A stretch of DNA of 64,000 bases. Source: an uncultured Candidatus Saccharibacteria bacterium. GTDB lineage: Bacteria > Patescibacteriota > Minisyncoccia > Phycocordibacterales > DATDWN01. The position numbers and the translations under genes are program-made. Of this stretch, positions 2,192-63,588 are shown one piece after another (position 1 is the first letter of the stretch; each line of letters opens with the position of its first letter). The stretch spans positions 4,945 to 68,944 of the forward strand of contig CAZRVD010000003.1 in the NCBI GenBank assembly GCA_964603545.1, given 5' to 3'. The notes under the pieces are model-generated. The model ran no database searches and was not told where the DNA came from. It was given only the letters and a program-made list of their open reading frames with translations.

Positions 2192-4000
2192 TTATGATTT
2201 TTGTTTACTTAACCATATTTTATATTTATTTGCCATATCTTCAAAACTTATACTGTTACTAGCAATCTCGTCTTTACCATGAACCATATATATTATTGCA
2301 TTCAAATCAACTTTTTTACGTGAACTTTTTACTGCTTTTGCTTTTGAAATTCTACTTTTAGCTCTTTTTAATATCTCAGGAAGTTTTAGTGTTACATTTC
2401 TAATATATGGATCAGCACTTAGCTTTTTGCCAGTAGATATTTTGACTAGTTCATTGAATGTCCTTGAACCTGCTAGTTTCCAGACTTTTGCCATATCTTC
2501 TCCAACTTTTGGGTTGTCTACTATATATCCATACTTTTCAAAGAAATACTCTCTCCATTGTGTTAAGGCTAGAGTTGCGAGTCCGTAACCGTGGTAGGAT
2601 CCTGATGATTCCCAAGAGTAAATATGCGGAACATTCAAAGCCCCCAATGATTCTTCTGATCTTACATAGTACTTTTTAAAATTTGCTTTTGCTATATCCA
2701 AAACTTTTTTTTCTGTAAGATTTTTTGTCTCATATATTTCTTTTTCAAAATTTGCCACAAAAATAATTCCATTTAGTCCAAGAGGTCTAACTGTGTAAGT
2801 TTTTTTAACAATTCTTTCATAAAGATCAAATGGATAGGACTCACCTTTTGAATTTACTGCATATTTAGCTTCCCACTCAGGACTAGAAAACACTGTATCT
2901 AAAAACATGCTTTGGGTTTCAGCCCAAGAAGTAGACATGGGATAATACTCATGATTTACGCAAACATCGACTTGTTCAGAGTTTAAAAGATGTGCGGCAT
3001 GCCCCCCTTCATGAAATAAAGTATGAATTCCTTGAGTACCAGAACCGATTTGATCGGGCACTACATTGCAAGTAAAGTTAGTTGAACCCGCTAATCTTTT
3101 ACCGTTTTCATATTTAACTAGTCCTGGCCAGTGGCAAAAACCATTGCTGTATTTTCCTTTTCTATCTAACAAGTCTAATCTCAATGTGCCGTTTCTAAAA
3201 TCTATTCCCATTCGGCTAAATGATAAACCCCATCTCAACAGAGCATCGCTGAATTGGAAATACTGGTCTTCTTCTTTTGCAAAACTTCCGGACATCATAA
3301 AACTAAAGTTCCAAGGTTTAGTTATGCCCGGCGTCTCGGTTTCAAGTTTTACCACTTCTTTCATTGCGTATTTAGTTTTTATATGAATCTTATCAAAAAT
3401 AGTAAAGAGCTCCTTTTTTGTCATTCCATCTTCTTTTCTAACTTTAAAATCATAAAAATCACTGTACCCGATAGTTTTAGCGTACTTGTTTCTTAGTTTT
3501 ACTACTTTTATGTAATCTTTTACTAAATATGTTGCTAGTTTTTCTTTTGCCTTAAAACAAGCTTCTCTGACTTTTTCATCAGGATCAGTGTATGTCATTG
3601 TAGACATCTTATTAATTGACGCTTTTACGAATTTTTTTGTATTCGGATCAACATAGCCTTCTTTTCTCGTAGCAAGTTTCTTATGTAAAAAATCTTCAAG
3701 TTTATCGATTTCTTTTTTAATTCCTCTTGCTTTGTCGGGTATTTGATAACCTTCAAAAAATTTTAACCATGTGTTTAGTCTTGTTACTTCTTCTTTATTT
3801 GCGCCTTTCAACAACTCTTTGATTTTTTTTGTATACCTTGAGTCTGATCTAAAAGCATCTCTTTTTGCTAGTGCATCAGCCTTCTTTTTATTAACTGAGT
3901 GGTCTCCCATATATGATAACCAAAAATAGTCTTCATAATTTTTATGCAGTTCAAAATACTTATTGTTTAATTCTTCCAAATATTCAGTCGCTTTGCTCAT
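2192..4000 (-). CDS. M3-family zinc metallopeptidase (oligoendopeptidase F-like)
   Basis: HEGGH zinc-binding motif ([13 protein letters not shown]) in a ~600-aa protein, in the position and length typical of PepF-like M3B peptidases. Confidence 0.55.
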
Positions 4001-4612
4001 TTACTTAATATATTTTGTTAAAACTTGAAAGTCTTTAAGGATGGTCTCCTTATTTGAGCCATCATACAGGGCGACAGCAGGGTGGTAAAGGGGTATTACA
4101 GCTATGGGACCGTAACTTGCCTTCGCCACAAACTCCTTGCCGTGGAGCTCTCCAATAGGTCCTATTTGATCGGTTAGGCCAAAGTGGTTCATAATATAGT
4201 TCATAGAAAACCTACCGAGGGTTGCGATAACTTCCGGCTGGATAATATCTATTTGTCTCTCCAAAAAAGGTGCATAAAGTTTTATTTCTTCTTCTGTGGG
4301 ATCACGGTTTTCTTGCGGACGGTCTTTTACAATATTAGTTATATACACATCACTCCTGTTAAGTTTTATTGATTCCAACATATTGTCTAGAACTTTTCCC
4401 GACTTACCACAAAAAGGTCTTCCTGTTTCGGCTTCGTTTTTCCCTGGAGCTTCTCCAATAAACATAATGTGCGCTGTGTGACTTCCCTCCCCAACTACTG
4501 GAAAATACTTATTCTCAACTCGGTAATCATATAACGGAGATTCTTTCAACTGCAAAACATCATTTCTAATCTCCTTCATTTTTTCAAATCTTTCTTCAAG
4601 TGTGAGTGACAT
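4001..4612 (-). CDS. Uracil-DNA glycosylase, family 4
   Basis: GEAPGKNEAETGRPFCGKSGKVL (family-4 motif A) and HPAVALY (motif B); 203 aa. Confidence 0.8.
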   Translation of the reverse strand: MSLTLEERFEKMKEIRNDVLQLKESPLYDYRVENKYFPVVGEGSHTAHIMFIGEAPGKNEAETGRPFCGKSGKVLDNMLESIKLNRSDVYITNIVKDRPQENRDPTEEEIKLYAPFLERQIDIIQPEVIATLGRFSMNYIMNHFGLTDQIGPIGELHGKEFVAKASYGPIAVIPLYHPAVALYDGSNKETILKDFQVLTKYIK

Positions 4613-27683: not shown

Positions 27684-28922
27684 CTATATCTTATTCCTTA
27701 GTAATTTGTGGAAACCAACCGCGTATCTATGTGCCTCAGCATTTGAAAGAAGTATTTCCCTTTCATATTTCAACCATTTTTTATCTCCCAATATTTCTTT
27801 CGCTCTGTGCCTCTCATCTTTTACAACAGAAACTATGGGAATATCTAGATTGTGTTCTTTTAAGACTCTTTCCATTACTCTCTTTTGCGCGACTCCCCCG
27901 TCTACAACGACAAGATCTGGAAATCTCCACTCTATATGTCCAAGTCTACGCGAAAGCACTTCACTTAATGCTTTTGTATCGTTTACTCCAGGACTTTCTT
28001 TGATTTTAAATTTTCTATAATCAGATTTTTTTATTTCTCCATCTTCCACCACAGTCATCACTCCAACAACATTTTCCCCAGACATATGAGCAATATCATA
28101 TGACTCAATTCGAAAACTGTGCAACATCGGATGTTGCACAAGTTTGCCTTCTTCTTTTATTAAAGACACATCCTGGATATGATTTAAAGTAAATAATGTA
28201 CGTTTAGTAATGTTTGCCTCCTCAAACTTTTTTTCTTTCGCGAAACTTCGCATTTGTTTCTCAAGGTTTTTCACTAGTTTCTTTTTATCTCCTTCAAAAA
28301 ACAGTTTTATGTTTTCAATTTGCTTCACATAATTCTCTTTTGAAATTTCACCAGTACAAACTCCAGGACAAAGTCCTATCTGGCGGTTGAAGCAAGGCTT
28401 ACCTGTGTTTGGTTCACATTTGTCACGAAAAGGAAACATTTTACGAACAATTTTCAAGGCTTCTTTTAATTGTGTTCCGTTTGGAAAAGGTCCAAATGAA
28501 TATGATATTTCATATTTTTCATCCTTAAGAAAATGCGAGTTTAAAAGTTCTCTACCACGTAGAATCAAAACTCTAGGAAATTCCTCATTTGTGACAGCAA
28601 CAAAGTTAAAACTTTTGTTGTCTTTCTCTTTTAAATTAGCCTCGGGTTGATATTTTTTTATCAAATGAGCTTCTAAAACAAGAGCCTCCAATACTGAGTC
28701 TGTTTTTGTAAAATTGATTGTACTAAACCCTCTCAACATTTTAGAAATAAGTGGTGAGCGCGTATTTACAATATCTTTATTGAAATAGCTTTTAACTCGA
28801 TCTTTTAGTGAAGTGGCTTTGCCTATATACAATATCTTTCCTTTTTTATTCAAGAAAAAATACACCCCAGGTGAATCTGGCAGTTTAGCTAAAATTTTCT
28901 TTGACGTTTGACTTTTCTTCAT
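27684..28922 (-). CDS. uvrC: Excinuclease ABC subunit C, short form (GIY-YIG + UvrBC-interaction + RNase-H-like endonuclease; no C-terminal HhH2)
   Basis: GVYFFLNKKGKILYIGKATSLKDRVKSYF GIY-YIG N-terminus. Start taken at MKKSQTSKK (ATG 28922) with TATAAT just upstream. The longer ORF to 29069 runs into G+C-rich foreign DNA. Confidence 0.85.
   Translation of the reverse strand: MKKSQTSKKILAKLPDSPGVYFFLNKKGKILYIGKATSLKDRVKSYFNKDIVNTRSPLISKMLRGFSTINFTKTDSVLEALVLEAHLIKKYQPEANLKEKDNKSFNFVAVTNEEFPRVLILRGRELLNSHFLKDEKYEISYSFGPFPNGTQLKEALKIVRKMFPFRDKCEPNTGKPCFNRQIGLCPGVCTGEISKENYVKQIENIKLFFEGDKKKLVKNLEKQMRSFAKEKKFEEANITKRTLFTLNHIQDVSLIKEEGKLVQHPMLHSFRIESYDIAHMSGENVVGVMTVVEDGEIKKSDYRKFKIKESPGVNDTKALSEVLSRRLGHIEWRFPDLVVVDGGVAQKRVMERVLKEHNLDIPIVSVVKDERHRAKEILGDKKWLKYEREILLSNAEAHRYAVGFHKLLRNKI
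28118..28140. repeat. 23-bp palindrome TGTGCAACATCGGATGTTGCACA, copy a (inside the uvrC CDS, in frame, encoding VQHPMLH)
   Basis: Exact identity with 57258-57280 and 59618-59640. Confidence 0.8.
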
Positions 28923-28957
28923 TTTATCATCATCATTATACACGGAGGGAAGGTGAA

Positions 28958-29092
28958 TGCACCTACAAACCAATTTGGCGTTTTGGGTTCTCGTCGGTGG
29001 TCTTGGACTTCTCATCATCTGGAAGAGACACAGGTTGATGGACAGGATTCTTGACGTGATGGACAGCATAGACGAAATACTTGGGTGGTGAC
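28958..29092 (+). CDS. Small hydrophobic peptide (44 aa, single TM), G+C-rich foreign
   Basis: GGAGGGAAGG SD then ATG. MHLQTNLAFWVLVGGLGLLIIWKRHRLMDRILDVMDSIDEILGW. Below the 60-aa cutoff of the ORF track. Confidence 0.4.
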
Positions 29093-36219: not shown

Positions 36220-36283
36220 ATAATTTTTTTAAATCTAACACACTAAAGACCTTTTTCAAAAAACACCTGTATTCACTAACTTT

Positions 36284-36313
36284 TATTTCACAGCGATATA
36301 TCGCTGTGAAATA
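36284..36313. repeat. Perfect 30-bp palindrome TATTTCACAGCGATATATCGCTGTGAAATA, copy 1 (24-bp core TTCACAGCGATATATCGCTGTGAA)
   Basis: Identical to 36584-36613, exactly 300 bp apart. The core also occurs at 63101-63124 and 63561-63584. Confidence 0.9.
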
Positions 36314-36323
36314 TTCTATGTAT

Positions 36324-36540
36324 AAAAAAACGGGTGGGTTGGGAGCGATAGATTGCTCCCTTCCCACCCGGTTCGGACGGTTTCTTTCCACCGTCATTGG
36401 TATTGCTGGCCGACTGCGGCCCTGACACGGACGATCGAACGTGAGTACGAGCGTAAGGTCGAAACAAGCTAGGAGTTCGAAACGGACGAGACAGAGTCGA
36501 AGTTTCCGAGGCAATAGGTGAAGGCATCCCTCCACCGCTA
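36324..36540 (-). ncRNA. Candidate ~215-nt small RNA in a G+C-rich cassette bracketed by the palindromes
   Basis: Promoter TTGACT(36570-36575)-17-TATGCT(36547-36552) on the minus strand. Terminator CGGGTGGGaagggagcaatctatcgctcccaaCCCACCCG + T7 at 36324-36370. No credible ORF (only low-complexity S/P/R read-through frames). Repeated UUCGA-containing hairpins. Confidence 0.35.
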
Positions 36541-36546
36541 ACAGCA

Positions 36547-36575
36547 AGCATACACCCATTCTCTAGTAAAGTCAA
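36547..36575 (-). promoter_or_regulatory. sigma70-like promoter (TTGACT -17- TATGCT) of the candidate sRNA, directly abutting palindrome copy 2
   Basis: Read directly on the minus strand. The palindrome centre lies ~60 nt upstream of the predicted TSS. Confidence 0.45.
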
Positions 36576-36583
36576 GTACACTT

Positions 36584-36613
36584 TATTTCACAGCGATATA
36601 TCGCTGTGAAATA
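36584..36613. repeat. Palindrome copy 2 (identical 30-mer)
   Basis: See 36284-36313. Confidence 0.9.
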
Positions 36614-40204: not shown

Positions 40205-40251
40205 ATCATAGTATACGAAACCGCCCAAGCGAAGCGCGGCTTCGCTTGGGC
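40205..40251 (-). terminator. Intrinsic terminator of the Cys-rich foreign gene
   Basis: Perfect 14-bp stem CGCCCAAGCGAAGCgcgGCTTCGCTTGGGCG then a T-rich tail on the minus strand. Confidence 0.55.
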
Positions 40252-53392: not shown

Positions 53393-53407
53393 TCCGTTTT
53401 CTGTTTA

Positions 53408-53443
53408 CCCCCGAACTAATTTTAGTAAATTCAGTTCTGGGGG
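53408..53443. repeat. Hairpin element CCCCCGAACTaattttagtaaattcAGTTCTGGGGG, copy 1
   Basis: Near-identical copies at 54905-54940 and 56793-56830; split copy at 56453-56471 / 56731-56749. Confidence 0.8.
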
Positions 53444-53459
53444 TGGATAATAATTTTAC

Positions 53460-54896
53460 CTAGTTAAGTGGACAATTTTCTGGAATAACAAACTGACCAA
53501 CCAAAGTTGAGTAAGCTGTGTTTGTTCCAGGATAAGCCCCGTTAAACATCGATATGACTTGTGCTTGGCTGTAAGGGAAGTCCAAACTGCCTGCGTTGAG
53601 TAGTGCTACCACCGTCTCTCTTCCAAGCTGATTTAATCCCCCACCACCCAGTTGCAAAACTTGTAACAAAGTTTTACCAGGAAAAGCGTTGTCGAAGACA
53701 GAAGAGTATAGTTGGTTCGGTGAGTAACCAGACCAGCTGTCAAAATGTTGACTTGCCTTCCAGTAACCATGTGAACAGTACTGGTTATTTTCTTCCTCAA
53801 CTTTAAGTTTATTTACAACTATAAATGTTTCTGTGGGATCATTAACAATAACTCCTAGACCCCCCGCGCCCGAAACATGTTCCCAGCCTTCCTGTAACAC
53901 CTCACTTATCTCATGAGTACCATAAGACACGCCAGTGAAAGCAACACAGCCATTTTGCAGAGTTACTCCAGAGTAATCCTCAATATTACCCGGTAGACCA
54001 TCATTTAAATTCAAGGTCCAACCAGAAAGAGGTTTACCTGTTTCATCTGTTTTACACAAAGTTACAGTTGATTTGTCTTCTTCTTCGTCATTTCCACAAA
54101 TAAACCCATCGTTACCCCTAGATTGAATCACAGAGAAAGTGACATCGGCTTTTACGCCGTCACTTTGAACTATGTTTCCTATTTCTTCACCTTCGCATTT
54201 AAAACCAGTTCCTCTTACTAGAGGTCCGTTGTTACCTGTTTTACCTAAACCATCTTGAGTTACTGGATAGTCCTGCATATCGCCAAAGCACCAGGCTTTA
54301 CCAATATACCTGACAGAATTTCCAATAAGCGGGTCATCACCTCCCCAAATGTTTCCATTTGAGTCAGCGATAGCCCAATTTTCTCCATTCCAAATATCTT
54401 TTACCAAACCTTTTTTGAATATTTTTTCTCCTATCTCATAAACATTATCTCCGTCGTCTGCCCAGAATTTGAAATACAATTTGTCTTGTAACTCACCACT
54501 GTTTTCTCCGGTGGTTACGTCCACAAGACTTTCTGGTTCATTCTGACCATTCTCTGGAGTGGCAGTAAGCAGTATATTCATACACGCCCAAGCATTGTTA
54601 TTGTTTACGTGAAGTGAAATAGTATCCTCTCCAATATCTCCTGGCTTTATATCAAGAAAGTTAAAGAAAAACTTACCCGCAAGCGGAGAAAGTTCCCAAG
54701 AAGTGGATGTGCTGTAAACCAGCTTGCCCCACTCGTTTGTTATATAACTTTCGTTGTCGATTTTTAGGTCGATAACCCCTGTGGCAAAAGTATTACCTGT
54801 GGACTTTTCTGTATCGGAGAGGTATGCTCCTGTACCAGTGGCCAGGATTGCTCCAGCAAAGATTATGGAAGTTATACTTAATAGTATTTTTTTCAT
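53460..54896 (-). CDS. TasA/camelysin-like secreted protein, paralog 2 (479 aa from MKKILLSITS)
   Basis: MKKILLSITSIIFAGAILATGTGAYLSDTEKSTGNTFATGVIDL. The longer ORF to 55007 reads through the upstream hairpin element. Confidence 0.7.
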   Translation of the reverse strand: MKKILLSITSIIFAGAILATGTGAYLSDTEKSTGNTFATGVIDLKIDNESYITNEWGKLVYSTSTSWELSPLAGKFFFNFLDIKPGDIGEDTISLHVNNNNAWACMNILLTATPENGQNEPESLVDVTTGENSGELQDKLYFKFWADDGDNVYEIGEKIFKKGLVKDIWNGENWAIADSNGNIWGGDDPLIGNSVRYIGKAWCFGDMQDYPVTQDGLGKTGNNGPLVRGTGFKCEGEEIGNIVQSDGVKADVTFSVIQSRGNDGFICGNDEEEDKSTVTLCKTDETGKPLSGWTLNLNDGLPGNIEDYSGVTLQNGCVAFTGVSYGTHEISEVLQEGWEHVSGAGGLGVIVNDPTETFIVVNKLKVEEENNQYCSHGYWKASQHFDSWSGYSPNQLYSSVFDNAFPGKTLLQVLQLGGGGLNQLGRETVVALLNAGSLDFPYSQAQVISMFNGAYPGTNTAYSTLVGQFVIPENCPLN

Positions 54897-54904
54897 TTTT
54901 TCTT

Positions 54905-54940
54905 GCCCCCGAACTAATTTTAATAAATTCAGTTCTGGGG
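54905..54940. repeat. Hairpin element, copy 2
   Basis: CCCCCGAACTAATTTTAATAAATTCAGTTCTGGGGG. Confidence 0.8.
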
Positions 54941-55051
54941 GTAACTTTCTAACCCACTTTCTTTGTTTGGTTGCGAAGCACGACTCTAGAGAGTTATGCC
55001 CCGCCACCTACAAAGATTAATGAGTTAGGAAAATTTTAGTTTAGAGTTCTA

Positions 55052-56452: not shown

Positions 56453-56749
56453 CCCCCGAACTAATTAGGACTTAAGACTCTTACTTATCCTCCTTTTCAA
56501 ACCACCTAAAGACCTACCGTGCTCCTTGAGCATTTTCTCTCTATGTGTGGCGTCTTCCCTTAGTTTATATGCTTCGTAATATATCAACTCAAATGGCTTT
56601 CGTAATTTGGTTGATGTACTCTTACCCGAATTATGTTCTTCTATTCTCCTCTTGAGATTATTTGTGTATCCGGTGTAAAGATTTCCATCTTTCTCACTTT
56701 TTAAAATATACACATAGAACATAATTCAAAGTCCTAATTAGTTCGGGGG
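56453..56749 (-). mobile_element. GIY-YIG nuclease gene inserted into the loop of a hairpin element, bounded by 19-bp inverted repeats CCCCCGAACTAATTAGGAC
   Basis: Left arm 56453-56471, right arm (reverse complement) 56731-56749. The interior 56465-56722 encodes the GIY-YIG protein. Confidence 0.5.
56465..56722 (-). CDS. Small GIY-YIG domain nuclease (UPF0213/YhbQ-like, 85 aa)
   Basis: MFYVYILKSEKDGNLYTGYTNNLKRRIEEHNSGKS. Confidence 0.8.
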   Translation of the reverse strand: MFYVYILKSEKDGNLYTGYTNNLKRRIEEHNSGKSTSTKLRKPFELIYYEAYKLREDATHREKMLKEHGRSLGGLKRRISKSLKS

Positions 56750-56792
56750 TTGATTAATTTTTATAATACTTTTTATAATTTTGTTTACTTTA

Positions 56793-56830
56793 CCCCCGAA
56801 CTAAATTTTAATAAATTTCAGTTCAGGGGG
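56793..56830. repeat. Hairpin element, copy 3 (intact, upstream of the TasA-like array)
   Basis: CCCCCGAACTAAATTTTAATAAATTTCAGTTCAGGGGG. Confidence 0.75.
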
Positions 56831-57257
56831 TCGACCTTCTCTTCTCAAACTAAGCCCTTGGAATTCGCAAATAATTACAAAAACAAAAAGAGCTGTCTCT
56901 GTTGTAATATTAAAATTACTGCAGAGATAGCTCTTTTGCGTGTTCCAAGTGGTTTGTTTCAAGAAAAGTAACTAACATCTTTTCTAACTTACTTAAGAAC
57001 TAATTTATATCTTGATCTAAACCAAGATAAAGTTCATCGTATCACGCTGTTTTTTTATCAAAATAATAAATACTAAAAAAGTGTATAACTTGTGGAGAAC
57101 AAGTGTAAAACTCTACAAATATGAGTGAAAAAACGTGAAAATATAGTAAAATTTGACAAAATTTTAAAAAATTGAAAAACAAAAAATACCTTGACCAAAT
57201 TGAGATTTACAAAAAACTACACCATACTTGTGTAGCTTTTTGTAACCTATTGAGTAT

Positions 57258-57280
57258 TGTGCAACATCGGATGTTGCACA
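57258..57280. repeat. 23-bp palindrome TGTGCAACATCGGATGTTGCACA, copy b (8 nt past the stop of the 57289-57969 gene)
   Basis: Exact match to copies a and c. Confidence 0.8.
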
Positions 57281-57288
57281 GTAGAAAA

Positions 57289-57969
57289 CTATTGTGACAA
57301 AGTTGTGAAATTTCTTTCTGTACTCGTTGCACTGTTACCTCTTTCGTCAGTAATTTTTATCATGTAGTAGTATGTCGTGCTTGTGGAAAGGCCGGGAAGA
57401 TTTACAGAGTGTGTAAAGCTTAAATTATTTACAAAAAAATTTGCGGGTGAGGTAGAGGCTACTGGGGTGGTGTTGCTATACCAAAATTCTGACTTTACAT
57501 TTTTGTTTGCTGTCCAGAAAACATATCCTCGTGTTGGAGAATTGCTAGATGACTCAATTACAAACAACTGTGGTGTCACTATATAGTTGGTGGCCATTGC
57601 AAATAAGCTGTTTTTAGAAATTTTGTTCAGAAGTTCTCTAGTTTTTGGACCAACAATTCCGACTACCTCTAGGCCATTTTCCCCTTGTAGCTTCTTTATT
57701 GCCCGCTCTGTCAAAGTGCCAAAATAGCCCGTAATAAGGCCTTCTGGATATATGTTTGGCACCTTTGAAAGCTGTGACTGTAGAACCTTAACAGCATCCC
57801 CGCGTGAACCAAGCCGCAGACTAGGTGTAGGATTTGGCGGAGTATCCACCAAAGCCACCGTAGCCCCAGCCGTCTGCACTACAAAAAGCCCAGCCAAAAC
57901 CAAACCAAATATTGAAAAAGTTTTTTGTCTCATACTAAAATTATACCAATTTTCCACCAGAATAATCAA
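57289..57969 (-). CDS. Secreted protein with peptidoglycan-binding (PG_binding_1-like) domain and Ig/FN3-like C-terminal domain
   Basis: LRLGSRGDAVKVLQSQL...GYFGTLTERAIKKLQGENGL. Probable start at MRQKTFSIFGLVLAGLFVV, around 57933. Confidence 0.55.
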   Translation of the reverse strand: MIILVENWYNFSMRQKTFSIFGLVLAGLFVVQTAGATVALVDTPPNPTPSLRLGSRGDAVKVLQSQLSKVPNIYPEGLITGYFGTLTERAIKKLQGENGLEVVGIVGPKTRELLNKISKNSLFAMATNYIVTPQLFVIESSSNSPTRGYVFWTANKNVKSEFWYSNTTPVASTSPANFFVNNLSFTHSVNLPGLSTSTTYYYMIKITDERGNSATSTERNFTTLSQ

Positions 57970-58031
57970 TTTTAGACAAGACGATGGGGGCGCATCCCCC
58001 GAAGGAAATGCGCCCGTAGTACACGTCAGAT

Positions 58032-58439
58032 CTAGCCGACCTGGAAGGTCCTCATCAGGGTTTCCGAGGTCGCCGCCTCGAGGTCGCTTGCGAGAATCCT
58101 CGCCAGCATCGGATGCTCTCCGCTGACTGCGGTTCCACAGCTCTTCGGGATGACCCCGTCCACTGCCTCGTTCCGGTGTGGCATGACTGAGTACATGTAG
58201 AACCGAACCTGCGGATTGACCTGCTTTACCAGGCGGGCCAACTGCGAGCCCTCGATATGGCTGTCGAAGACCTGACCAGAGACCACGAACGCCGGAGAGC
58301 CATCCATCACAGCGTCCAGAACGGCTTCTGGAATACTGGTGAAGAGGATCTCCCGGGATCTCGCAGGATCGATCTTGGCAACCCCCTCCTTGATTCCGAG
58401 CAGATTCTCGCGATGACGCTGAGCCACGATGATCTTCAT
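58032..58439 (-). CDS. G+C-rich foreign hypothetical protein (136 aa)
   Basis: AAGGGAGGG SD before MKIIVAQ. GGGCGCATcccccgaaggaaATGCGCCC hairpin downstream at 57988-58015. No confident family assignment. Confidence 0.4.
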   Translation of the reverse strand: MKIIVAQRHRENLLGIKEGVAKIDPARSREILFTSIPEAVLDAVMDGSPAFVVSGQVFDSHIEGSQLARLVKQVNPQVRFYMYSVMPHRNEAVDGVIPKSCGTAVSGEHPMLARILASDLEAATSETLMRTFQVG

Positions 58440-58564
58440 ATGCCCTCCCTTGGGTAGAAACAACGAACAGAAATCCTGAACCTTATGACATTATACACCC
58501 GTTTACTATTATTGTCAAATACAATTTTAGTACTAAAACAACCTTACTTATACGACCAAAATTA

Positions 58565-58903
58565 TCAAAAAATCTTTGTGCCATTTGGCACCTGTCTTTC
58601 GGGTATGGTTAGAACGACGTCCCCGTTTTCATCTGCAAAACCAGTCGTCAAACATTCCGATACAAAAGGACCGATTTTTTTATTTGGGAAATTAACAACA
58701 CAAACAACTTGTTTACCAACAAGCTCTTCTTTTTTATAATGCTTGGTAATTTGAGCACTAGATTTTTTGATTCCTATTTCTTGTCCAAAATCAATTTCTA
58801 ATTTGTAAGCGAGTTTCCTTGCTTCAGGAAAATCATCCACTTTTATTACAGTGCCCACCCTTAGCTCCACTTTTTCAAAATCATTCCAGGTAATCTCATT
58901 CAT
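58565..58903 (-). CDS. tRNA-binding OB-fold protein (CsaA/Trbp111/MetRS C-terminal-like)
   Basis: WNDFEKVELRVGTVIKVDDFPEARKLAYKLEIDFG. Confidence 0.75.
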   Translation of the reverse strand: MNEITWNDFEKVELRVGTVIKVDDFPEARKLAYKLEIDFGQEIGIKKSSAQITKHYKKEELVGKQVVCVVNFPNKKIGPFVSECLTTGFADENGDVVLTIPERQVPNGTKIF

Positions 58904-58933
58904 ACTAAAATTCTACCACAACCCAACTTAAAC

Positions 58934-59479
58934 TTAGCTACGGTTGTCGTTTAAAAGTTCCTTCATGTGCGAAGCTATGGGGCCTCTAATTACATTGGTA
59001 AGTTTCAAAAGAGATTCTAGCCTTTTTAACCCCTCAACCGTCTTGGACTTAAATTCAATCGTATAAAAATCTTTCAAGCCCTCCACTCTCTCAAGATCCA
59101 CCTGATCTTCGCCAATATTGTACTGCCAACCCGTACGGGTAAACTCAAATTCGTATTTGTATTGATTTAGGAGATTTTCCTCAATAAACTTTTTTGCATC
59201 TTCCTCCAATTCAAATTCTTTCCTAAGTGGTACGTCCGTGTCCACACCAATCTCTTTTTGATAGTGTTTTTTAACAGACACAATTACATCCGCTTCACCC
59301 CAAATATTTTTCTCATAAGTTCTTAATCTCAAAAATTCCTCATCCAGTCCTTTTTTGGGGTTGTATGAAGAATATATTTTGTCAGTTAAAACATACTCAC
59401 CCTTAAAAATTGCTTTGTTCTCTAGGAGAATCTTCCTATAAGTTTCTATTTCTGGAACAAATGACCTAGCTTCTATCAT
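58934..59479 (-). CDS. CYTH-domain protein (class IV adenylate cyclase / triphosphatase-like)
   Basis: Alternating acidic pattern EIE...E.E ... VDLERVEGLKDFYTIEF, typical of CYTH barrels. Confidence 0.5.
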   Translation of the reverse strand: MIEARSFVPEIETYRKILLENKAIFKGEYVLTDKIYSSYNPKKGLDEEFLRLRTYEKNIWGEADVIVSVKKHYQKEIGVDTDVPLRKEFELEEDAKKFIEENLLNQYKYEFEFTRTGWQYNIGEDQVDLERVEGLKDFYTIEFKSKTVEGLKRLESLLKLTNVIRGPIASHMKELLNDNRS

Positions 59480-59617
59480 ATGAAAAATTATTGTATATGA
59501 TTCCTCACCACTTTTTCGTTACTTTTTGCCTCAATTTCCCTCCAATCTTCTTCACTAAAATGTCTACCCTCCGCCTTTCCTTCGTAATGTGCTCGCCAAT
59601 TTTGATACGTCTCTGCT

Positions 59618-59640
59618 TGTGCAACATCGGATGTTGCACA
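59618..59640. repeat. 23-bp palindrome, copy c (5 nt past the stop of the 59645-60052 gene)
   Basis: Exact match. Confidence 0.8.
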
Positions 59641-59644
59641 ATTA

Positions 59645-60052
59645 CTAAATTTGATCTTTTTTGAGAGATTTGTAGAGAATTAGGATGAGAGAGAAGACTA
59701 AATATATCAATGAAATAAAAATTGCAACTAAATCTTTTTCTGTGTGTAAAAATTCATCACCACTATACCATGGGACAAAAATTAAAATTAAAATGTAGAT
59801 TATAAAATAAATTATTAAAGTTTTTCTCCATATAGAAAAAATATTTTTGTTCCAAAAATATATAAGAAGTGAAGGAATAATAACGGTCAAGCTAGATAAT
59901 GATACCAACAACAGATAATTCAAAAAACCAACACACAAAGAACTTCCTTCACTACAAATCTTAAATACTGTATATTTGGGAATTAATAGAAAAAAAACTA
60001 TGGACCCAATAACTCCCCAGTAAATCAAGAGTTTGTTTGACAACCAGTTCAT
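59645..60052 (-). CDS. Hypothetical small integral membrane protein
   Basis: Four hydrophobic helices. Confidence 0.4.
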   Translation of the reverse strand: MNWLSNKLLIYWGVIGSIVFFLLIPKYTVFKICSEGSSLCVGFLNYLLLVSLSSLTVIIPSLLIYFWNKNIFSIWRKTLIIYFIIYILILIFVPWYSGDEFLHTEKDLVAIFISLIYLVFSLILILYKSLKKDQI

Positions 60053-60067
60053 AACATAATTCTAACC

Positions 60068-63061
60068 CTAATAACTAATTTTTAAAAGGTCTCCATCCGT
60101 TTTAACAGTAACCACAACAAGCCCTGGTTTTGTACTCACCACTGCCCCGTCCCTGGTTTTCTCCCTTACAACTGTAGTATTGGTTGCCTTTCTGTAGTTA
60201 AATACATACTTTTCCACACCCTTCGCAACAACCCTTGTATCTAAGTCTGTTAGAACTCCTTTCTTTTCCTGCCAATCATAAACTATATCTGTATTTGGAA
60301 GATTTGTTGTAACCCCGTTTCTAATAATTTTGTTATAAGTAAATCTAAATCTCGTTGGGAACTCTATAAATTTAGTAAACGGAATAACTGTTGTGTTACC
60401 CTGGTTGTCTATAAGAGTTGTGGAAGTACTAGTTGTCAGTATTGTTGGATTTGGGTCTATCAAATTTACTGCAGAGAAAACAACGTCCTTTGTACTAGTT
60501 GAGAAAGTAACCTGTAGCTCTGGAGGAGTACTGTCATATACAGTTACACTATTTTCTTTGGCTTCTAGTATTTTATCTACTATTCCATCTCCATTTCCAT
60601 CAATTTTCAGTGTAGAGCTAGCTACACTTGTATTTGGAACTATATTCATTTCTACCAAAGTAGAAACTGTGGATGGAACACCTTGGAAAGAAGTAGTTTC
60701 TATAATATTGTTCCCAACTTGCTTATCTACATCCAGCGAGAAACTCCCACTATGAAGACCCTTAAGTTTCAAAGTAAGTGTTAGGTCGTTTGGAGTAGAA
60801 ATAAACTGTACGTCACCTATTTGCTCATAATTAACATCTGGAATTTCCTCTCTTATTTTACCTGTTACTGGATCCTTTCCTGTATACCTACCAAATGAAT
60901 CTGTTACCCCCAATGTGAGTGGTGAATGAAGTGTGTAATGCAGACGATTTTTACTAGAAATTAAAGTTGATGCATTGTCTACAACTATATTACTTGAATC
61001 AGAAAAAACTGTATTATTAAAAGTTGATGAAATAAAATCTAATATGTTTGGAATTTCTAAAATATCCCTGTGCTTCCTATTTACTCCACCAACCGGATCA
61101 TTGTACTTCCACAAATCCACCCACCACCTCTCAACATTCGGTGTGGATGTAGACATCCACAAGGCACTAGGCACAACAACCGTACCGTCACCATCTACCA
61201 CATACCGAGGTTTGTAAGAAAGATATTCTGTTCCAGAAGAATTCAAATAGGATTTATAATCCACCCCAGCTATTGTTTCCTCTCCCCATCCGGCTATTTG
61301 TATAACTTTGGTTGTAGAAGCTGGTTGCCACAAATCTAATACAGCATGCATACTCTGTGCATCTGCATACAAACCAGAGTTTCCAATATTTGGGTGAACG
61401 GTGTCATCAAAGGCAGGTTTGCTTCTTCCGTCTGTTCCTAAAATATAATTTTTAAGCTCCGTATTATTTGAAACAAAAAGTCCGTACTCTGAAGTCTGTG
61501 GATTGAAAAACGGTTTATCTTCAAAAGTAGCCACCTTATCTACCACAAACCCTGGATCAACTATTGAAAAATATCCTTCAGAAGGTAATAGGTTGTAAAT
61601 AGCCGGCATGTTCTCAGAAAGGTCTCTGGAACGAGCGTTGTCCATAATCAGCCCATAACCCAAACCTTTCCCGTGAAGTAAAGCTACTACGGCATCTGGT
61701 GTTCCCACTTGTGGCACAGCAACAAAAATTATTTTATCTATTTTGTTGTAAATTGGATTGTTGGTATCCTTCAATTTTTGAACTAAAGCTTTTATTACCA
61801 AGCCTCCGTTTGAATGCCCAATGAGTGTCACTTTACCTGTCCCAGAATTTTGCTGTAACTCTTGTAATTTTTTAAGAATGTAACTTTCAGAAAAATTTTG
61901 TGAATTGTTATAGAAAAGTCTGTTTCTAGTTGTACTCGCACCAAATGTTATGATGTCATTTAAAGAAAGTCGCCAGTCATAAGGGATAAAAGCATAGTCA
62001 GGTATAATGCCGTCATTTTTCCAATTTCGGAGTTCTGTTATGAAAGAATTGTAAACATTCGCTCCAAATACTTCATCCATCACTCCAGTCTCCGCTTCAT
62101 CACTTATACTCTGGGTATCGTCTTTTGTATAAATAGGATTTAAACTTTTACCGGTAGTATTAAGTGAAAGTTTGGTATGTTTTGAATCAGATGTTGAAAG
62201 CCACAACTCATCGTCGTGGAAACACTCATTACCAATCAAACTAGTCCCACAATCAATCGTTCCCAATTCTTCATAAAGTCTAGAACTCATTACCCCAGGA
62301 AAAAACATCACGCTCGAATTACCTGTCGGTGGTGGAGATACAACTTCACCAGTAAAAACTGCCGAAACAGTCACAATATTTGTCCCAGAAGAGGCATAAG
62401 TAGTATTCCCACTCAAAATTCTTTGAGCCAAAACTGGTGGATCAATCGACTCAATACTCAAATCACAATTAAAAACTTTTCCTTTTAGGCTTTGCGGAAG
62501 AGGATTCCCGTACTTACTAGAATCATAATCTGCCGGGCATTCACCTTCGAAACATGGCGACTTAATACTTACATTCCAGTCATCCACCGCATCAGTCGGA
62601 CCGTTTATCTCACCGGTCGCAACCAAAGACACATGAGAAGCATCCTGAAGAAAACCAACTTCAGTTACTTCAGTTGTCGTTGATTGGATATTTGGTTCTA
62701 TTCCAATATATGGACAAAGGTTGTAATTTCCATCAATACAGTTGTAATCATCATCATACAAACTACATGACTGAAAACGGTTTATTTTGTAACCCGCCAA
62801 GCCCTCATCCCACTCAAAATGAGAAGCAAAAGCTGGATCAATAGAAATAGCAAGTGGGGTTGTAGTACTTTCAAGAGACGCTAATATAACATTAGTAGAA
62901 GGACTGTTTACCTCATAAAGAGCAAAAAACGCAGAGACAAACGGCGTACTTAGTAGAAAAAAGAGCAATAGTGATAGGGCAAAAACAAATAATGACTTTG
63001 TTTTCTTTTCCATATTGACCGTCATATTACTCACAGCCCTCCCTTGGTCAATATTGCTCAC
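60068..63061 (-). CDS. Large (~980-997 aa) secreted/membrane-anchored protein containing an alpha/beta-hydrolase (lipase/esterase, GHSxG) domain
   Basis: N-terminal TM LFVFALSLLLFFLLSTPFVSAFF. VTLIGHSNGGLVIKALV nucleophile elbow. Long Thr/Ser/Val-rich beta-rich C-terminal region. Confidence 0.5.
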   Translation of the reverse strand: MSNIDQGRAVSNMTVNMEKKTKSLFVFALSLLLFFLLSTPFVSAFFALYEVNSPSTNVILASLESTTTPLAISIDPAFASHFEWDEGLAGYKINRFQSCSLYDDDYNCIDGNYNLCPYIGIEPNIQSTTTEVTEVGFLQDASHVSLVATGEINGPTDAVDDWNVSIKSPCFEGECPADYDSSKYGNPLPQSLKGKVFNCDLSIESIDPPVLAQRILSGNTTYASSGTNIVTVSAVFTGEVVSPPPTGNSSVMFFPGVMSSRLYEELGTIDCGTSLIGNECFHDDELWLSTSDSKHTKLSLNTTGKSLNPIYTKDDTQSISDEAETGVMDEVFGANVYNSFITELRNWKNDGIIPDYAFIPYDWRLSLNDIITFGASTTRNRLFYNNSQNFSESYILKKLQELQQNSGTGKVTLIGHSNGGLVIKALVQKLKDTNNPIYNKIDKIIFVAVPQVGTPDAVVALLHGKGLGYGLIMDNARSRDLSENMPAIYNLLPSEGYFSIVDPGFVVDKVATFEDKPFFNPQTSEYGLFVSNNTELKNYILGTDGRSKPAFDDTVHPNIGNSGLYADAQSMHAVLDLWQPASTTKVIQIAGWGEETIAGVDYKSYLNSSGTEYLSYKPRYVVDGDGTVVVPSALWMSTSTPNVERWWVDLWKYNDPVGGVNRKHRDILEIPNILDFISSTFNNTVFSDSSNIVVDNASTLISSKNRLHYTLHSPLTLGVTDSFGRYTGKDPVTGKIREEIPDVNYEQIGDVQFISTPNDLTLTLKLKGLHSGSFSLDVDKQVGNNIIETTSFQGVPSTVSTLVEMNIVPNTSVASSTLKIDGNGDGIVDKILEAKENSVTVYDSTPPELQVTFSTSTKDVVFSAVNLIDPNPTILTTSTSTTLIDNQGNTTVIPFTKFIEFPTRFRFTYNKIIRNGVTTNLPNTDIVYDWQEKKGVLTDLDTRVVAKGVEKYVFNYRKATNTTVVREKTRDGAVVSTKPGLVVVTVKTDGDLLKISY

Positions 63062-63094: not shown

Positions 63095-63130
63095 TATTAA
63101 TTCACAGCGATATATCGCTGTGAATTAATA
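63095..63130. repeat. Perfect 36-bp palindrome TATTAATTCACAGCGATATATCGCTGTGAATTAATA, copy 3 of the 24-bp core
   Basis: Between the stop of the YerC-like gene and the start of the large hydrolase gene. Confidence 0.9.
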
Positions 63131-63536: not shown

Positions 63537-63556
63537 ATATTCATCAATTATTGATA

Positions 63557-63588
63557 ATATTTCACAGCGATATATCGCTGTGAAATAT
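63557..63588. repeat. Perfect 32-bp palindrome ATATTTCACAGCGATATATCGCTGTGAAATAT, copy 4, ~25 nt upstream of the YerC-like start codon
   Basis: Read directly. Confidence 0.9.

Follow-up and report, generated by a model that had tools for sequence, protein, structure and literature searches.

How does a perfect 23-nt palindrome come to stand three times in a short stretch of a bacterial genome, once in frame inside the DNA-repair gene uvrC and twice between genes, and is it a regulatory site, a scattered piece of uvrC, or a dispersed repeat that the gene tolerates? In the 64-kb stretch of Patescibacteria DNA analysed here (the window), exact copies of TGTGCAACATCGGATGTTGCACA are found at 28118-28140 (copy a), 57258-57280 (copy b) and 59618-59640 (copy c). 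The sequences around them are mutually unrelated, none of 100 dinucleotide shuffles contained a match (0 expected by chance), and there is no further site in the window at up to three mismatches. The exact triplicate described in the original prediction, including its in-frame member in uvrC, is therefore confirmed, with two corrections of detail. The arms, given there as 10 bp around a central G, are actually 11 nt around that G (10-bp arms fit a CGG centre), the palindrome itself being perfect; and copies b and c do lie past the stop codons of minus-strand genes, at distances of 8 nt and 4 nt, respectively, rather than 5-8 nt. The features concerned are the following:

27684..28922, minus strand: uvrC (412 aa), the intact host of copy a, with GIY-YIG, UvrC_M and UvrC RNaseH domains (Pfam PF01541, PF27096 and PF08459)
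28118..28140, minus strand: copy a, a probable REP-type hairpin of 23 nt within uvrC; it is translated in frame to (L)VQHPMLH(S) and lies in the linker that leads from the UVR/UvrC_M region to the RNaseH-like endonuclease domain
57217..57235, unstranded: a short hairpin (CTACAC/GTGTAG) flanked on either side by A/T runs, a terminator-like site downstream of copy b and separate from the repeat
57258..57280, minus strand: copy b, a probable solo REP-type hairpin in the 3' untranslated region of a 226-aa gene (57289..57969, minus strand), 8 nt past its stop
59618..59640, minus strand: copy c, a probable solo REP-type hairpin, 4 nt past the stop of a 135-aa membrane-protein gene (59645..60052, minus strand)

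Computed folding of the single-stranded 23-mer gives a hairpin of -9.5 kcal/mol (z -5), and none of the six frames of the element contains a stop codon. Lone half-sites (TGTGCAACAT, 0 mismatches) are absent from the window apart from the three palindromes, which are all singletons (with no inverted doublet as in REPIN/BIME) and reach a density of 3 per 64 kb, or about 1 per 20 kb. The stop codons upstream of copies b and c occupy 57289-57291 and 59645-59647, and 138 nt separate copy c from the start of the gene at 58934..59479 (minus strand). No T-run follows copy a, b or c, a terminator scan of 56900-60100 called no palindrome copy, and the separate hairpin at 57217..57235 is likely to be the terminator downstream of copy b. 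Rfam gave no match at the palindromes, the single Rfam match of the window being one tRNA.

The same repeat is dispersed in other genomes. A census in which one genome per species was scanned with GTGCAACATNNNATGTTGCAC yielded 59 loci. Patescibacteria MAGs account for about 45 of these, and several such MAGs have 4-8 copies each (8 being the maximum); the palindrome is present in dozens of Patescibacteria genomes, and one hairpin sequence, that of the window, in many species. The consensus is T-GTGCAACAT-YNR-ATGTTGCAC-A, with CGG, CCG, TGA, TCA or TCG at the centre; the few matches in other phyla look like chance or ordinary terminators. Strict copies in the Patescibacteria loci are intergenic in 37 of 54 cases, at least 17 of these 37 being no more than 12 nt from a stop codon (the gap between convergent genes is often filled), and about one quarter of the 23-mer copies lie inside long ORFs. 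Solo copies favour two kinds of site, the first few bases past a stop codon and permissive loops within coding sequences. Copies b and c match this post-stop placement and can therefore be read as ordinary solo REPs, which bears out the earlier suggestion that they occupy the position of a REP-like element. Extra half-sites stand beside some copies (L019, L036 and L051), and in some relatives (L012, L013, L014 and L046) A-runs and T-runs flank the hairpin, in the manner of a bidirectional terminator. A scan of viral contigs with the loose pattern TGTGCAA-N9-TTGCACA gave 121 matches, only 6 of them with complementary inner triplets, which amounts to background and to no viral link.

In relatives, nearby pairs of palindromes bracket whole genes. 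Pairs about 700 bp apart enclose an ORF of 205-224 aa (typically ~215 aa) in L001, L016, L020 and L027, a Y1 transposase gene is likewise flanked on both sides by the repeat in L188, and in L054, where the contig end cuts off a REP-associated tyrosine transposase (RAYT) ORF, one copy adjoins the 3' end of that ORF. The bracketed ORF matches Pfam Y1_Tnp (PF01797, 'Transposase IS200 like') above the cutoff, and its sole NCBIfam match is the equivalog REP_Tyr_transpos (NF047646), at 34-45 bits and hence below the 80-bit cutoff. The protein of ~215 aa, which has a C-terminal extension, belongs to a Patescibacteria family of at least 670 members that carry no annotation beyond 'transposase' and in which the HUH motif (NHFH) and the YIHxNP tyrosine motif are invariant; many members are on very short contigs. 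A sequence search against the PDB, including the solved RAYT structures, gave no significant match. An AlphaFold model built on a 40-sequence alignment (pLDDT 90.5) was compared by fold with solved structures. The top match of the predicted fold is 4ER8 (chain A; E 6.9e-6, target TM 0.69), a structure of the REP-associated tyrosine transposase of E. coli in complex with a REP hairpin; the transposases of ISDra2 and IS608 rank lower. Beside the paralogous Y1 genes of these loci stand other palindromes of equal size, each gene having its own hairpin, and several such paralogues can occur within one MAG.

For an independent test of this association, 80 RAYT loci were gathered from metagenomes by protein similarity alone; the best 23-nt hairpin in each 80-nt flank was taken, and counted as positive when at least 9 of its 10 stem pairs were formed, with 308 segments from the same loci as controls. 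Positive hairpins are present in 57 of 75 upstream and 62 of 79 downstream flanks (about 80%), against 1 of the 308 controls. TGT...ACA ends (TGT-N17-ACA) are found in 108 of the 119 positive hairpins, and in 47 of 49 loci the hairpin upstream of the gene matches the one downstream of it at 21 or more of 23 positions. Their placement is regular as well, the upstream hairpin typically ending ~28 nt before the start codon and the downstream one lying 0-12 nt past the stop codon or overlapping it. Among 61 distinct hairpins, 9 of the 10 stem pairs have changed on both sides and 93.8% of cells are paired, a percentage that is inflated by the selection of the best-pairing 23-mer per flank (neither the regular placement nor the control rate nor the compensated differences between loci are affected by this selection); none of 500 shuffles reached the observed covariation, and slid registers were likewise far off. 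The covariation, which includes some G-U pairs, fits a constraint on an RNA hairpin equally. A profile of the flanks of 96 hairpins has neither a GTAG nor a CGTC tag, only A-rich/T-rich extensions of the stem; what is conserved at the ends is the paired TGT/ACA.

Hairpin and protein vary together in these loci. All ten RAYTs that are at least 60% identical to P0243 have the hairpin of the window or a 1-2-nt variant of it, and those at 50-57% identity have other variants, such as TGTTAAACAC, TGTCAAACAC, TGTTGGAAAC, TGTTAGACAC and TGTGCAAAGT. In the subclade with the window's hairpin, tig is directly downstream of the RAYT gene in 10/10 loci and clpP is upstream where the contig reaches; no other RAYT subclade adjoins tig. 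The Tig proteins at these loci are 57-75% identical to the reference, and the transposase gene has therefore long been kept in place, by vertical inheritance and not by hopping. Such a stable position beside tig is the behaviour described for RAYTs, unlike that of insertion sequences (PMC5581495).

There is, then, a family of repeats that are constrained as hairpins, paired with a RAYT-like gene family and subject to placement rules, and we regard it as very probable that the 23-mer is a REP-type hairpin, the cognate DNA partner of Patescibacteria RAYT-like (Y1/HUH) transposases, with the window copies as solo members. The proposal in the original prediction that the palindrome is a target of protein recognition or recombination gains support in this form, the candidate partner being the Y1 (RAYT-like) transposase family. 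For this particular genome the link to the transposase is made through repeat homology: the window has no Y1/RAYT-like gene, nor does L064, a second assembly of the same organism (99.99% identical) that extends 9.6 kb past the window's left end, and both clpP and tig are absent from the window and from that assembly. Our prediction places this organism's cognate gene beyond the window, in the clpP-tig interval.

The binding, cutting and rejoining of a hairpin on single-stranded DNA are established for E. coli TnpA(REP) and for IS608 (PMC3733652). By analogy with E. coli TnpA(REP) and IS608 TnpA, the Patescibacteria element would fold on single-stranded DNA into a hairpin of 10-11 bp, a Y1 dimer would bind this hairpin and cut and rejoin the DNA at its foot, and copies of the element would in this way be spread or maintained. 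In transcripts, copies b and c would form hairpins in the 3' UTR or between cistrons, with a possible incidental stabilising effect on mRNA 3' ends. On this account a feature that looked odd becomes ordinary selfish or domesticated DNA, the suggested new regulatory link to uvrC is removed, and a REP/RAYT system would be documented in the candidate phyla radiation; our literature search found no description of RAYTs or REPs in Patescibacteria or the candidate phyla radiation. A clean TGT-N17-ACA family, a readable covariation with the transposase and a fixed position of the partner gene would also make it a convenient system in which to study RAYT function.

The evidence was weighed against four other explanations. 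The Y1 genes could be ordinary mobile insertion sequences of the IS200 type with hairpin ends, in which case the solo 23-mers would be dead end-fragments or miniature derivatives (PATE/MITE-like) and not the partners of a domesticated RAYT. The Pfam match to an IS200-like transposase, the scores below the RAYT equivalog cutoff, the many members on very short contigs (as is usual for repeated elements) and the several paralogues that can share one MAG all speak for this. We nevertheless consider it unlikely, given that both ends carry the same hairpin instead of distinct left and right ends, that every paralogue has a hairpin of its own, that the best fold match of the model is a RAYT structure, and that the window-hairpin subclade has stayed beside tig in 10/10 loci while Tig diverged to 57-75% identity, a sign of long vertical inheritance. 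Still less probable, in our judgement, is that the palindrome is primarily an RNA element (a protective hairpin of the 3' end or a terminator) selected at gene ends, with a secondary association to the transposase. Copies within essential genes cannot terminate transcription, copies a, b and c lack a T-run and copy b has its own terminator-like hairpin downstream, and the strong hairpins on ~80% of transposase flanks would be left unexplained, as would their co-variation with the protein. These points count against it even though the distance from the preceding stop is 0-12 nt, in transcribed DNA, for copies b and c and for many relatives, the flanking A- and T-runs of four relatives are like those of a bidirectional terminator, the stem covariation with some G-U pairs suits RNA too, and published REPs have such roles (PMC3733652). 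An intrinsic terminator in the usual sense, a G+C-rich hairpin followed by a T-run, was rejected on the missing T-runs and on the separate hairpin at 57217-57235 after copy b, and so the possibility that the motif is simply a terminator family, which the original prediction had kept in view, is not supported.

A Cheo-type SOS box is a CGAAC-N4-GTTCG-like dyad in the promoters of SOS genes. The half-sites of the palindrome had been likened to such boxes, and a double-stranded operator of a dimeric regulator, for instance a LexA-type SOS box tying uvrC to other genes, would suit the perfect dyad symmetry, the location of copy a in a DNA-repair gene and the extra half-sites that adjoin some copies. 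The sequence, however, does not match the Cheo consensus, the sites follow stops or lie within genes rather than in promoters, there is no copy upstream of uvrA or uvrC in the window, and what relatives conserve is the pairing and not the sequence, the stem covarying throughout; a LexA/Cheo box or other operator was accordingly rejected and is, in our view, most improbable. Hardly any weight can be given, either, to a DNA-uptake signal built up by biased uptake and recombination, which would account for coding copies that leave length unchanged. Patescibacteria are thought to depend on DNA uptake, and coding loops are indeed occupied without a change in length, but a signal of this kind sits poorly with a density of ~1 per 20 kb, with the absence of single half-sites and near-miss copies outside the three palindromes, and with the tight association with a Y1 transposase gene, and it too was rejected.

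The REP-type reading can also be set beside known systems. The IS200/IS605 elements (IS608, ISDra2) and their miniature derivatives share with the Patescibacteria system the Y1/HUH transposase fold and the recognition of DNA hairpins at element ends. Their left and right hairpins differ from each other, and they are mobile elements present in many copies; here, in contrast, identical hairpins stand on both sides and the gene keeps a fixed chromosomal position. The Rickettsia palindromic elements (RPE) are similar in being palindromic selfish DNA that is tolerated in frame in housekeeping genes of a small, reduced genome. RPE-1 insertions are longer and add tens of residues, whereas the Patescibacteria element is 23 nt long, length-neutral and accompanied by a transposase partner. 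The closest likeness is with the REPtrons of Proteobacteria (E. coli and Pseudomonas; PMC5581495, PMC3733652), where a short palindromic repeat is also dispersed mostly just downstream of genes, the same repeat stands on both sides of a Y1/HUH transposase gene, every variant of the transposase is paired with a repeat of its own (as is seen here in relatives) and the gene is syntenic and vertically inherited, with 4ER8 as the best predicted fold match in our case. There are also clear differences: the Patescibacteria hairpin, a perfect unit of 23 nt, has TGT...ACA at its foot and lacks an unpaired GTAG tag, its copies are singletons in low number and not REPIN/BIME doublets, one hairpin is shared across many species, and the ~215-aa protein, with its C-terminal extension, falls below the NCBIfam RAYT cutoff. 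The lack of an unpaired tetranucleotide tag likewise sets it apart from the GTAG- and CGTC-tagged REP superfamilies (PMC3733652).

With the intergenic copies placed in this way, the copy inside uvrC has to be accounted for. Copy a lies in an ORF of 27684..29069 (minus strand), within which the true uvrC starts internally at 28922, and the UvrC of the window is 100% identical over 412 aa to database protein P0001; the palindrome keeps the frame and is translated as LVQHPMLHS. By the names that the relatives of this UvrC bear, the organism belongs to the Parcubacteria/Patescibacteria. In an alignment of 39 orthologues this site is the sole stretch without a consensus, between HIQDVSLIKE(E/D) and FRIESYD, and across 120 orthologues the linker measures 9-24 residues and is free in sequence; the peptide is therefore not conserved 'by codon choice'. 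The refuting outcome named in the original prediction, a plain terminator family together with conservation of the peptide in all uvrC orthologues, does not hold, since the linker is hypervariable. In a codon alignment with four orthologues, the 23 nt of copy a fall on 23 positions taken up by unrelated linker codons in P0002, P0006 and P0007, and the sole length difference is one extra GGC codon upstream, by which a plain 23-nt insertion into uvrC is ruled out. Peptides of the hairpin type stand at the same UvrC site in P0011 (LVQHPVLNK), P0020, P0003, P0069, P0085 and P0117. At the DNA level, the uvrC of L192 has there a perfect hairpin variant, TGTGCAAGGT-TTA-ACCTTGCACA, and that of L062 a decayed hairpin, TTTGCAAGGC-CAG-GCTTTGCACA. 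Some uvrC orthologues therefore have compensated hairpin variants at this spot, and P0002, P0006 and P0007 have unrelated codons there. Hairpin-bearing linkers have 11-13 residues in four proteins and 17 in three others, and hairpin-free ones 9-14. The idea that the intergenic copies derive from uvrC is not supported, the uvrC segment being itself a newcomer in a hypervariable linker.

Copy a is probably tolerated because the element has no stop in six frames and the linker is free in both sequence and length. Intragenic REPs of the GTAG/CGTC type have been described in uvrA, uvrB, recB, polA and dnaE of Opitutus, Thioalkalivibrio, Rickettsia and Xanthomonas (Di Nocera et al. 2013, PMC3733652), more than half of them as dimers or groups that add 20-30 residues, and different REPs occupy about the same recB site in two Xanthomonas species. 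The published cases share with ours an in-frame REP at a flexible site of an excinuclease gene, and the recB sites parallel the shared uvrC and mnmA sites reported here; they differ in phylum and in hairpin family, and the REP described here does not lengthen the protein (PMC3733652). Intragenic REPs in uvr genes being already on record, the uvrC copy is an instance of a known phenomenon: copy a sits harmlessly in the flexible UvrC linker, a situation known for REPs in other bacteria.

In-frame copies are not confined to uvrC. The C-terminal beta-hairpin of MnmA carries one in four genomes (peptide CATSDVAQ), RuvX/YqgF carries one in two genomes, and the other in-frame hosts are KsgA, TsaE and two glycosyltransferases. 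The hairpins fill coding slots without lengthening the host proteins, something that simple transposition does not predict. The MnmA loop reads TGTGCAAAGT-CGA-ACTTTGCACA in L065 and TGTTCAACAC-CGA-GTGTTGCACA in L066, and has no palindrome in L067; it has 8 residues with or without the hairpin, and the variant of L065 is the one that flanks its own transposase gene in L267. Such length neutrality could possibly arise by insertion followed by trimming under selection, by rewriting in place by a resident enzyme, or by exchange of one hairpin for another. A more specific proposal, which we offer tentatively and hold to be rather doubtful, is that fixed 'slots' in housekeeping genes (the uvrC linker, the mnmA C-terminal loop, tsaE and ruvX) are rewritten in place, one 23-nt variant replacing another, or the loop sequence, at unchanged length. 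This would imply that what the Y1 enzyme drives is gene conversion or an exchange of hairpin for hairpin, and not simple insertion. If true, REPs would here be maintained in a way that has not yet been described, and protein loops would have a source of directed variation. Length-neutral in-frame copies at the same uvrC and mnmA sites across species call for caution in annotation and in alignment-based phylogeny, and these same-site copies may help to show how REPs are copied. In TsaE, the hairpin peptide of 8 aa in L026 corresponds to 11 aa in the L047 orthologue, and the L047 segment orthologous to it, a sequence with no second copy in the DNA searched, is itself another near-perfect palindrome.

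Across the whole window, 19 perfect palindromes whose arms measure 9 nt or more were observed, against 2.1 expected from shuffles; several of them are within long ORFs (16685, 48270 and 61142), and a G+C-rich 31-mer is located at position 40222. Besides the 23-nt REP-type palindrome, a second perfect palindrome family (TTTCACAGCGATATATCGCTGTGAAA, four copies) and a third hairpin family (CCCCCGAACT...AGTTCTGGGGG) are found in the window:

36282-36613, two TTTCACAGCGATATATCGCTGTGAAA copies and the stretch between them
63096-63127, TTTCACAGCGATATATCGCTGTGAAA copy
63556-63587, TTTCACAGCGATATATCGCTGTGAAA copy
53398-53444, CCCCCGAACT...AGTTCTGGGGG hairpin
54896-54942, CCCCCGAACT...AGTTCTGGGGG hairpin
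56785-56831, CCCCCGAACT...AGTTCTGGGGG hairpin

The hairpins of the third family, located behind paralogous surface-protein genes, look like terminators common to these genes. In the second family, one exact copy lies on either side of a G+C-rich, non-coding stretch of 268 nt (36314-36581), which has a folding energy of -93 kcal/mol (z -2.8) and, on the minus strand, a strong hairpin with U7 at its end. No Rfam family matched this stretch, which is possibly a structured RNA gene, so far unannotated, and the copies around it may be another REP-like or operator element. Roughly 500 bp separate copy b of the 23-nt palindrome (57258) from a stand-alone GIY-YIG nuclease ORF of 85 aa (56465-56722, minus strand), and no connection between the two was found.

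Solo copies of a further hairpin variant, TGTCAAACAC-TCG-GTGTTTGACA, are present in MAGs (L002 5361, L035 3146 and L056 5844) in which the window's variant is found too. This further variant flanks other RAYT-like (Y1/HUH transposase) genes in the metagenome set; several REP families therefore coexist in a single genome.

In a related MAG (L041), the MnmA gene contains, besides the 23-nt hairpin, two copies of a 49-nt palindromic element, each with perfect 19-nt arms (GTTSCAGACGTCCAACGTC) and an 11-nt loop:

3473-3529, first copy
3962-4018, second copy, in opposite orientation

Both are read in frame (..DVQR..DVGRL..) and are true insertions that lengthen MnmA, reminiscent of the Rickettsia palindromic elements. 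The TsaE gene of another relative (L047, 6715-6741) carries a near-perfect palindrome, ACTATTAAACAC-CCG-GTGTCTAATAGT, which differs from the L026 hairpin and occupies the orthologous TsaE position; no further copies were found in the DNA gathered for this analysis.

Outside Patescibacteria, the 21-nt core of the window's hairpin, flanked by A7 and T7, occurs in two Bacteroidota genomes (Ferruginibacter, L009 7188 and L030 2082), where it looks like a bidirectional terminator and probably reflects coincidental convergence.
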